Source: a virus (lineage: Duplodnaviria; Heunggongvirae; Uroviricota; Caudoviricetes). Taken from it: a DNA stretch of 64,000 bases. The stretch lies in IMG/VR virus record IMGVR_UViG_2880378312_000006; one strand, 5' to 3'. The first letter of the stretch is position 1. Every line of letters begins with the position of its first letter. Position numbers: made by a program. This document shows positions 9,001-12,000 of the stretch, piece after piece.

Positions 9001-12000
9001 GATGGAAACTGTATTGCATGCACTGAAAGCGATGGGAAAAGCCAATTCTGTTGAACTGGCGGCGCGGCTTGATATCAGCCGTGAAGAAGTTCTTAACGAA
9101 CTGTGGGAACTCAAAAAAATGGCGTTGTTGATAAAACGGGTCACACCTGGTTTCTGGCTGTCGAAGGTGAAGCCGGGGTAACCGAAGGGCAGGCACTACA
9201 ACCTGAAGCGCCGGATGTGGTAACCGAAGAGGTCGCTCCAAAAGTTACCGCAGACATGATGGTTGAGTTTATCGGTCAGGATGGTGCTAAAACGTGTGAG
9301 GAACTGGCGGGTAAGTTCGGCGTCAGTACTCGCAAGGTTGCTTCCACGCTGGCGGTGGTAACCGCAACGGGGCGGCTGGCACGCGTTAATCAGAACGGTA
9401 AATTTCGTTACTGCATGTCGGGGGGTAATTTACCAGCAGATCCGAAAGCCGCGCCGGTAACGAAAAATGATGGTAAGGCCTTTCCTCAGCCAGCAGGTGC
9501 TGCGTTACCAGTCCGGGAAGCCGCAACACAGGAAGAAATTAAAACAGAAACTGTGGCGGACATTGTGCAGCCGTTGCCATCGTTTACCGAAACGCAAGCA
9601 GATGAGCTGATTTTTCCGTCCCTGCGCAGGGCAAACCTGGCGCTGCGCAGGGCGAAAAGTGATGTTCAGAAGTGGGAGCGAGTCTGCGCCGCGCTGCGGG
9701 AGCTGAACAAGCACCGGGATATTGTTCGACAGATTACTGATTCTTCCCGCCGTGTTGTATCGGAAAAGTGATAGCCGGAGGCGCTTATGGCGAAACCTTT
9801 TACACACGAACAGCGTGAAGAACTGAAGGCCCGAATTATCGGGCTGGTACGCAAAAATGAACGCATGACGATATCACAACTGGAGAGAGCGACGGGAGCA
9901 GGCTGGCATTCAGTCAGACGTTGCCTTGTGGATGTACTGGCTTGTGGCGATTTATACATGCCCGGTAAATACGGTGTTTTTACATCAGAACAGGTGTATC
10001 GCGTATGGCGTAAGGCAGCGGAGAAAGCAACCGACCAGACATTGATTCGAAAGTTACCAGACGGAGAAATACGCCGCTACGACAGACAACAGAACATAAT
10101 CTGTGGCGAGTGCCGGAAGAGTGAAGTTATGCTGCGTGTACTGGCGTTCTATCAGGGCAATTTTCAGGAGGCGGTACTGTGAGTGAATTAGCTATCAGGC
10201 TTCAATTGTCGCTGGCATTCGCATCAAAGGAGAATGAGATGACCACTTTTACAAAAGAGCAGTTAATCAGTCATGTTAGTGAAAATGTAAAGGCGATGAA
10301 ATTTGCAGTAAAACAGACAGCATTCAAAAATTCTCTCGAGGCAATTGAGTTGGATTTAGCACTGGCCCTTGTTGCTCAGGCTTCGCTGGAAGCAGAGCCC
10401 GTGCTTTATATGAATCGATTTACCGGAAAGACATTCTCACTGGAAGAGCAACCCGGTGCTGATAAGGAACCGGAAATATACGTGCCGCTATATGCTGCCC
10501 CGCCAGACAGCGCCGCCATGCTTCAGGCTGGAAACTTTCGGGAAAAAAAGGGTTCGTCAACCAATAATTTTCGGGAAATCTCGGAAACGTCAACCAACTA
10601 TCCGGTAACTCTGGATGATTGGATAAGCTGTAGTGAGCGAATGCCGGATGATGGTCAGCACGTAATTATTTTATGTGATGGCGCATTCGTTCTTTATGCG
10701 CAATATCGAGACGGTGAGTTTTTTGATGTAGTCCGTAATGGTGATGAATTTTTCGAAACACAGAGCCGCAATGTAACCGACTGGATGCCGCTACCAGAAC
10801 CGCCGCAGGAGGTGCGCCAATGATCTGGCCTGAAGCCTTTGCAATTACAGGCGTTGCTATAGCTATTGATTTTTTAGTATATGTTATTTGTCGGTGGGGG
10901 TAAAAACGTTCGCCGGGATTCACACCAAAGGAGGGAATATGTCGGATGATATTTCACTGGCAATGGAAGGTGCGCTGGCTGTTATTGCTGTTGTGGGCGT
11001 TTACTGCCTGGTTGTGTTTTTGATGGATCGACTAGGGAACTGAATTCATTACGATATGGGAATTCCCATATCGGGTAAAAACGGTTTGCGGTAAAGCGAG
11101 AGTTAAGTAGAATTGCTGCGGGTGCTTGAGGCTGTCTGCCTCGGGCATGCCACCGTAAGGCAGACAGAGAAAAGCCCCAGTTAACATTACGCGTCCTGCA
11201 AGACGCCTAACATTAATCTGAGGCCAATTTCATGCTAGACACATGTAGGTTAGCCTCTTACGCGCCGAAAGGCAAGGAGAAGCAGGCTATGAAGCAGCAA
11301 AAGGCGATGTTAATCGCCCTGATCGTCATCTGTATTACCGTCATAGTGACGGCACTGGTAACGAGGAAAGACCTCTGCGAGGTACGAATCCGAACCGGCC
11401 AGACGGAGGTCGCTGTCTTCACAGCTTACGAACCTGAGGAGTAAGAGACCCGGCGAGGGAGAAATCCCTCGCCACCTCTGATGAATCAGGCATCCTCAAC
11501 GCACCCGCACTTAACCCGCTTCGGCGGGTTTTGTTTTTTCCTGGCATTCTGGTTTACAATTCGCACGCCAGCCTGAACAACTGGCACCTGCTGCGCCAGC
11601 AGAGACAACCGATGGCGCACGATACCAAATTATACAATTCTGATGATTCTGCCGTCTTTGCCAGCAGGCGCGGACGGTGTTTTTACGCATTCAAATCTGA
11701 CTGGTACCAGCATCCCCCATGCACTGAAGAACAGGCCGAATGGCTCATTCAGTGTTACCGCAGGCGCGGATGCGAGGTTAAAAAAGCCCTTAGCCTCGAC
11801 TACCGTCACTGGATAATCTCCGTCAGGCTCCCTTACTCCGAACGGCCACCGCGTCCGTCCCGCACATTCCAGCAACGGATCTGGAGGTAATGTGCGGGTA
11901 TTACTTCGACCTGTTCTGGTACCGGAACTCGGTCTGGTTATCGTTAAGCCAGGCCGTGAATCAATGTCAGCATTCCATAACGGCAGAATACTGGTGGAGC

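Follow-up and report, generated by a model that had tools for sequence, protein, structure and literature searches.

The question raised by the hok gene in the 64,000-nucleotide stretch of Caudoviricetes DNA held as IMG/VR record IMGVR_UViG_2880378312_000006 (here called the window, to whose whole length all positions refer) is whether it is only a toxin reading frame or one part of a complete hok/mok/sok type I toxin–antitoxin module. A preliminary description had placed a hok/mok-type type I toxin locus in a nin-like region of the window, and both parts of that statement were upheld: the toxin gene belongs to the Hok/Gef family, the mok frame is of the MokC/MokW type, and the replication genes and a DUF968-RusA-Q gene group flank the locus. 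The analysis described below indicates with high confidence that the locus is a genuine hok/mok/sok module whose structure is intact. The intactness of all regulatory RNA elements is established in silico by the element map, the alternative pairings and the covariation between the two ends of the mRNA. The transcripts, 3′ processing, dependence on RNase III, toxicity and biological role would be those of plasmid R1 hok/sok and of hokW-sokW from the Stx2 phage 933W (92% identical), from which they are assigned by analogy.

The toxin open reading frame (ORF) of 51 amino acids, which had been described as nested in a longer mok-like frame, was recovered unchanged. It encodes the peptide MKQQKAMLIALIVICITVIVTALVTRKDLCEVRIRTGQTEVAVFTAYEPEE, and comparison with Pfam showed a match to PF01848 (HOK_GEF) with E=9.7e-24 and 83.2 bits (cut-off 22) that covers all 42 model positions. 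It contains the hydrophobic stretch AMLIALIVICITVIVTALVT and, after it, TRKDLCEV, and both hallmarks of the Hok/Gef family, the N-terminal hydrophobic helix and the RKDLCEV core, are present. The RefSeq entry for the coding sequence (CDS) is WP_001303917.1, 'type I toxin-antitoxin system toxin HokD' (PGAP name hokD), and the peptide is identical to HokD of Escherichia coli K-12 at 50 of 51 positions, with I16 here and L16 in K-12. K-12 HokD has been used as a toxic control (bioRxiv 10.1101/2025.08.07.668861).

The hok ORF lies within, and in the same frame as, a mok-like ORF of 70 amino acids, whose start codon (ATG, 11232) is preceded 8 nucleotides upstream by the Shine–Dalgarno (SD) sequence GAGG. 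An overlapping upstream frame with its own SD is a feature of the family, and the position of this one is homologous to that of the annotated mokW and mokC. With this in-frame offset of 57 nucleotides, 'Mok' here is an N-terminally extended Hok. In 47 distinct loci, the mok-hok arrangement was in frame at 57 nucleotides in 27 and in the +1 frame at 58 nucleotides in 12, the latter class including hokB and the P1-like copies; four loci had a truncated mok and four had none. Both the in-frame and the +1-frame mok are normal for the family.

A search of the whole window with Rfam at gathering thresholds showed a match to RF01794 ('sok') at 11120–11294 on the plus strand, with 116.9 bits (gathering score 59), E=5.9e-26 and model positions 1–157 of 157. 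As this match lies on the plus strand and runs from 11120 to the hok AUG, it identifies the leader of the hok mRNA and not the antisense RNA. An Rfam search had been proposed in the preliminary description as a means of finding a Sok-like antisense RNA; it did return the family, but as the sense-strand leader, and on the minus strand, where evidence for Sok was also sought, only a noise match of 18.2 bits at 11047–11178 was obtained. RF01794 is labelled 'sok antitoxin' yet models the hok-sense strand, and a strand-naive reading of it puts the antitoxin on the wrong strand.

The 5′ end of the mRNA was placed from model position 1 of RF01794, at 11120, together with its spacing to the −10 element, and the 3′ end from the terminator. 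The −10 column is kept as TAGAAT, TATAAT, TACAAT or TATATT across homologous loci and is identical in hokW of 933W. The terminator hairpin has seven pairs, five of them GC, and is followed by TTGTTTTTT; the terminator is kept in K-12 hokD and differs in hokW. The predicted fold of 11120–11546 has a minimum free energy (MFE) of −176.7 kcal/mol (z=−6.0 relative to shuffles). The span of 11232–11530 originally given for the locus does contain the features ascribed to it, but it falls short on either side: the transcription unit runs from about 11120 to about 11540, and the translational activator element (tac) lies outside the span. Similarly, the terminator hairpin that had been reported is present, but the fold-back role suggested for it is not its own: the fold-back inhibitory element (fbi) is a separate segment upstream of the terminator. 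Taken together, the ORF, Pfam, Rfam and terminator features are far beyond chance.

Long-range closure of the mRNA between a 5′ tac and a 3′ fbi, a feature of the family, was found here both in the MFE structure and in covariation across genera. The two elements form a duplex of 12 bp with one bulged C (−21.5 kcal/mol), which is present in the MFE structure of 11120–11546. For comparison, 60 loci encoding Hok relatives were taken from reference genomes, together with those of 933W, phage Evi, a P1-like phage, and K-12 hokB and hokC. For more than 40 loci, the 5′ 14 nucleotides found their best pairing partner within the 3′ untranslated region (3′-UTR) in the homologous segment, 340–381 nucleotides downstream, and the loci with the tac-fbi pairing span six genera (Escherichia, Kluyvera, Citrobacter, Pseudocitrobacter, Photorhabdus and Pantoea). 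The pairing is accompanied by compensatory changes (U-A to C-G, G-C to A-U), as in GGGUGC/GCACCC versus GGGCGC/GCGCCC and GAGG/CCUC versus GAGA/UCUC, and the hokB tac, GCCUGAG, pairs with CUCAUGGC. Over 15 distinct tac/fbi variants, 96.7% of cells were standard pairs, compared with 29–62% when the partner was slid, and three pairs were changed on both sides. The duplex energies separated cognate from non-cognate tac-UTR combinations by a modest gap (−21.1 versus −18.3 kcal/mol; shuffled UTR −15.1 ± 2.4), and positional conservation and pair counts are stronger evidence for tac-fbi than the duplex-energy test. The loci without fbi are known or evident wrecks, namely K-12 hokC, which lies beside IS186, and one fetched relative (L057).

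In the model for R1, the full-length mRNA carries a tac/fbi stem while the upstream box (ucb) keeps its mok SD sequestered; in the 3′-processed mRNA tac pairs with ucb and the mok SD with the downstream complementary box (dcb); and the nascent RNA forms a metastable hairpin involving tac (PMC9841398). RNAfold predictions on the window sequence reproduced all three of these states, closed, open and metastable. In the full-length RNA (11120–11546), ucb (11174–11180) paired with 11218–11224. With the 3′ end set at 11480 or 11488, tac (11120–11127) paired with ucb (11172–11178) and the SD (11220–11224) with dcb, whereas the first 51 nucleotides alone folded into a tac-containing hairpin. The predicted exchange of partners matches the model (PMC9841398), although it is sensitive to the 3′ end assumed. 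Of ucb, the segment GAAAAGCCCC is conserved in nearly all homologues, and in the stem of the leader hairpin the changes relative to 933W are compensatory (GGCUGUCUGCC...GGCAGACAG versus GGCUAUCUGCC...GGCAGAUAG).

The antisense RNA had not been identified in the preliminary description, in which its promoter was expected on the minus strand around 11150–11290. A candidate was located there, with the −35 element at 11275–11270, the −10 element at 11252–11247 and an RNA predicted to run from 11240 to about 11164–11170. Two independently annotated homologues place this RNA consistently. The annotated K-12 sokC, when aligned to the window, extends from 11240 to 11164 on the minus strand, and the annotated sokW of 933W has its 5′ end at the equivalent of 11240 and its 3′ end at about 11170. 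Read along the minus strand, position 11240 lies 7 nucleotides downstream of the −10 element; the −35 column reads TTGACC in other homologues. The candidate Sok is fully complementary to the mok SD and the mok AUG, and its predicted fold (−34.5 kcal/mol, z=−5.5) consists of a 5′ tail, which is complementary to the region of the mok start codon, and a long hairpin followed by the U-rich CUUUUCUCU. A cis-encoded Sok with its own promoter and terminator, as in the rest of the family, is thus predicted. The primers that Takada et al. used (PMC8621323) have matches in the window, and their 'promoter-less' primer YO-421 changes the TAACCT hexamer to GAGCCG. In that study the change abolished the antitoxin activity of sokW, and sokW RNA was visible on northern blots (PMC8621323). 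The positions of all elements are collected in the table.

Features of the hok/mok/sok locus in the window (+, strand shown; −, complementary strand)
Feature	Position	Strand	Basis or remark
Tentative weak hok −35 candidate, TTGCGG/TTTGCG	~11085-11091	+	
hok/mok promoter −10, TAGAAT	11108..11113	+	Read from sequence; 6 nt upstream of putative +1 at 11120
Full-length mok-hok mRNA, ~420 nt	11120..~11540	+	Predicted ends
tac, GGGUGCUUGAGG	11120..11131	+	Pairs with 11494-11506 in the full-length form, with 11172-11178 in the truncated form
5′ leader hairpin	11132..11167	+	Predicted fold; in the nascent transcript tac pairs with its 5′ arm (metastable structure)
ucb, anti-SD of mok (AAGCCCCAG)	11172..11180	+	Pairs with mok SD region (full-length), with tac (truncated)
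mok Shine–Dalgarno, GAGG	11220..11223	+	Sequestered by ucb (full-length fold), paired with dcb (truncated fold)
mok-like ORF, 70 aa	11232..11444	+	Length and arrangement as in annotated mokW of 933W and mokC of K-12
dcb, GCCUC	11253..11257	+	Pairs with mok SD 11220-11224 in truncated folds
hok Shine–Dalgarno, AAGGAG	11274..11279	+	Read from sequence; kept in all homologues; K-12 hokD homology starts here
hok toxin CDS, 51 aa	11289..11444	+	Pfam HOK_GEF; RefSeq WP_001303917.1; K-12 HokD comparison
3′-UTR hairpin, 9-bp stem, GAAA loop	11452..11473	+	Fold; stem changes relative to 933W compensatory
fbi, CCUCAACGCACCC	11494..11506	+	Pairs with tac; between GAAA-loop hairpin and terminator
Intrinsic terminator of hok mRNA, stem 11513-11530 and T-run	11513..11540	+	Terminator scan
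sok promoter −35, TTGCCT	11270..11275	−	17-nt spacer to −10; identical in 933W sokW
sok promoter −10, TAACCT	11247..11252	−	Same hexamer mutated in the sokW study
Sok-like antisense RNA, 71–77 nt	11164..11240	−	Predicted; mapped from sokC and sokW

From these elements the following mechanism can be proposed. The weak hok promoter would yield a stable mRNA of about 420 nucleotides that is translationally silent as made, tac being locked to fbi and the mok ribosome-binding site (11220–11223) being held by ucb (11174–11180). Slow 3′ exonucleolytic trimming to the 3′-UTR hairpin would remove fbi; tac would then pair with ucb, and the mok SD region would refold with dcb into a hairpin that is the Sok target, so that the trimmed mRNA would be both translatable and open to binding by Sok. 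The 3′-UTR hairpin is likely the protective 3′ end of this processed, truncated mRNA, as the equivalent R1 hairpin is required for the stability of the truncated mRNA (PMC9841398). The convergent sok promoter, presumed to be the stronger, would supply a short, unstable antisense RNA that blocks translation of mok and, because hok translation would be coupled to that of mok, of hok as well; the Sok-mRNA duplex would be marked for RNase III. Once Sok is no longer made, because the element is lost, transcription is blocked or the prophage is induced, the stored mRNA would be translated and the 51-residue Hok would insert in the inner membrane and depolarize or kill the cell.

Several points weigh against an intact and working module. 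None of the NCBIfam Hok models scored above its curated cut-off (48.1 versus 73); an HMM-equivalog (hidden Markov model) basis for the HokD name was dropped for this reason. A generic sigma-70 consensus scan (4-of-6 rule) flagged neither the hok nor the sok promoter, so that both were located by homology instead, and the sok −10 hexamer agrees with the consensus at only three of six positions. The truncation point used for the open state was assumed, and ending the RNA at 11476 changed the local structure relative to ends at 11480 or 11488. The chromosomal hokA, hokB and hokC were reported neither to mediate post-segregational killing nor to be activated by rifampicin (bioRxiv 10.1101/2025.08.07.668861), and structural intactness is therefore no guarantee of a killing phenotype. 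Finally, the RNAs, the toxicity and the antitoxin activity of this particular copy are inferred from its relatives.

The biological role of the module could be prophage maintenance, assistance in lysis or exclusion of phages. A tentative alternative, possible but unlikely, is that the locus serves mainly as an accessory lysis or abortive-infection factor of the phage and not as an addiction module, with read-through on induction silencing sok and releasing Hok. Such a factor would contribute to lysis, a role proposed for hokW-sokW, or keep out superinfecting phages, an effect that R1 hok/sok is reported to have on T4. The orientation of the locus speaks for it, since hok lies on the same strand as the upstream replication genes and the downstream DUF968-RusA-Q genes, and read-through of delayed-early transcription at a nin-equivalent site in this orientation could silence the convergent sok promoter. 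In addition, hokW-sokW is a functional type I toxin–antitoxin pair and aids the release of Sp5, the Sakai counterpart of 933W, after mitomycin C (PMC8621323). However, hokW lies near the right end of its prophage and not in a nin-equivalent place, and its behaviour may not transfer; furthermore, the proposal is one about role and does not conflict with the molecular mechanism of the hok/mok/sok module preferred here.

The hok paralogues of O157:H7 occupied four to nine places per genome among the matches listed, and up to 18 have been reported in O157:H7 chromosomes (bioRxiv 10.1101/2025.08.07.668861). Relative to hokW, the most divergent part of the otherwise near-identical leaders is the Sok 5′ tail and mok start (6 of 19 nucleotides, compared with 8% overall), a pattern that would fit selection for mutually insulated Sok-mok specificities. 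That both things hold jointly, insulated specificities among the paralogues and an induction read-through that silences sok and so couples Hok release to induction, is doubtful at present. If true, this type of locus would be the ancestral regulated form of the orphan hokD of K-12 and, in addition, an induction-timed lysis or abortive factor.

It is very improbable that the locus is an evolutionary relic, complete in appearance but functionally silent, simply a passenger of the prophage and comparable to the majority of the hok loci on the K-12 chromosome, which have been hit by insertion sequences (IS), point mutation or truncation: inactivated relatives are indeed common among the loci compared (K-12 hokC no longer has fbi, K-12 hokD and the relBE-fused L011 and L035 lack the whole leader, and L010, L054 and L057 have degenerate leaders or frames, frameshifts included), the reported lack of post-segregational killing by hokA, hokB and hokC points the same way, and both promoters are weak by consensus, but this copy shows no damaged element, its ORFs being open and its tac/fbi, ucb and dcb all complementary, its two promoters do not differ from those of hokW-sokW, a pair active in experiments (PMC8621323), and many O157 genomes carry the sequence with 100% conservation.

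The hok gene belongs to a lambda-like prophage of E. coli O157:H7 in which it lies, with the replication genes and DUF968-RusA-Q, on one strand. Upstream are a DUF551 gene and an ORF of 34 amino acids, and downstream are a hypothetical gene of 92 codons, DUF968, RusA and the antiterminator Q; the site is the positional equivalent of the lambda nin region. Many E. coli O157:H7 chromosomes contain a 551-bp region spanning the locus at 100% identity and have its CDS annotated as hokD, and a related place is present in 4744 of 5426 complete E. coli genomes. The matching O157 annotation gives the hok CDS only, mok and the RNAs being absent from the record. BLAST showed that the window is collinear with the O157 PV15-279 record except for indels, IS elements and a tRNA block, and coordinates in the wider context are for this reason approximate. 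No second hok copy was found in a search of the window. The hypothetical gene between hok and DUF968 was considered as a Rem homologue and rejected, as it has no similarity to rem. The 34-residue ORF (10939–11043, plus strand), directly upstream of the hok promoter and annotated as hypothetical, encodes the hydrophobic peptide MSDDISLAMEGALAVIAVVGVYCLVVFLMDRLGN; it had no match in a Pfam search and could be another small membrane protein.

Other observations concern the toxin and its mRNA. Tyr47 of Hok is encoded by TAC followed by G, and the resulting UACG motif (11427–11430, plus strand) is kept in this copy; A-to-I editing by TadA is reported to recode the Tyr of UACG to Cys in the hokC, hokD and hokE mRNAs, as at codon 29 of hokB (bioRxiv 10.1101/2025.08.07.668861). 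The hok 3′-UTR (11453–11534, plus strand), with its hairpin, fbi and terminator, gave a sub-threshold Rfam score for isrK (27.7 bits versus 50), and that identity was rejected; the alignment shares a hairpin-spacer-terminator shape with little sequence identity.

Elsewhere in the window, two identical genes for the DicF small RNA (sRNA) lie 57 kb apart (4223–4274 and 61593–61644, both minus strand), which implies a tandem of two lambdoid prophages. Their early regions match each other at about 92%, and within the window the hok copy is in the first only. In the same prophage as hok, about 5 kb upstream and on the opposite strand, is a RelE/ParE-RelB type II pair (~5559–5837 and ~5839–6030, minus strand); its location comes from the annotation of the matching O157 record, and the window coordinates, being transferred, are approximate. 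Just downstream of Q lie three tRNA genes (Met-CAT, Arg-TCG and Arg-TCT; 14210–14459, plus strand), in a block of about 380 bp that is absent from the otherwise near-identical PV15-279 prophage, and beyond them, in the late-promoter region, is an Rfam match to the sRNA STnc100 (101.8 bits; 15233–15405, plus strand). By near-identity to PV15-279, the distal part of the prophage (about 37700–53500), after the tail-fibre genes, carries the type III effector genes nleA, nleH1-2 (a fragment), nleG and espM1. Two IS insertions of the PV15-279 record are absent from the window.

The locus is already known, in that its gene is named in RefSeq and mokW, hokW and sokW of 933W are annotated in GenBank. 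As a discovery it has little value: the type I toxin–antitoxin family is a textbook one, and a 92%-identical paralogue has been characterized experimentally. Its use lies in an exact map that covers all regulatory elements, whereas standard annotation omits mok, Sok and the mRNA boundaries.

Comparison with the mechanistic prototype, the hok/mok/sok (parB) locus of plasmid R1, showed the same elements (tac, fbi, ucb, dcb, mok and Sok) and the same predicted switch. The R1 mok has an offset of 58 nucleotides from hok, in the +1 frame, compared with the in-frame offset of 57 nucleotides here. HokW, which is close to the toxin of the window, is only 44% identical to R1 Hok, and the R1 locus is plasmid-borne with demonstrated post-segregational killing. 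Some Hok matches lay on very short contigs labelled Acinetobacter (L026), Xanthomonas (L033) and a Candidatus Scatousia metagenome-assembled genome (L067), and are probably contamination.

The hokC (gef)/mokC/sokC locus of K-12 likewise has an in-frame mok (69 versus 70 amino acids), the same tac and a Sok in the same place, and its leader aligns throughout. Its sokC stem-loop is 18 nucleotides shorter than that of the Sok predicted here and its toxin is about 84% identical; it lacks fbi because of the downstream IS186, whereas fbi is intact in the window.

With hokD (relF) in the Qin prophage of K-12, the homology is confined to about 11275–11540, from the hok SD to the terminator and including the 3′ hairpin and fbi, at about 98% DNA identity; the downstream DUF968 neighbour, YdfU, is 83% identical to its counterpart here. 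K-12 hokD is fused behind relBE and lacks the promoter, tac, ucb, Sok RNA, sok −10 and mok start, the place of which is occupied by relE. The window, in contrast to such a relBE-hokD locus, has its own leader, mok and sok, and represents the complete form of what in K-12 is a truncated remnant. K-12 hokD is thus a truncated derivative of a window-type locus.

Between the locus and hokW-mokW-sokW of 933W/Sakai Sp5 (PMC8621323, NC_000924.1) the identity is 92%. The two share the hok and sok promoters, tac, ucb, fbi and dcb without any difference, and both have a 70-codon in-frame mok, a 51-residue Hok and the same position of the Sok 5′ end. Apart from the Sok tail and mok start, the differences are clustered in the Hok C-terminus (TAYEPEE in the window versus VDYESEK in HokW), in the loop of the first hairpin, the stem changes of which are compensatory, in the 3′ hairpin, again with compensatory changes, and in the terminator. 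The position in the prophage is different too: here it is the nin-equivalent region, and in 933W it is the right end, next to the large LPD5-domain gene.

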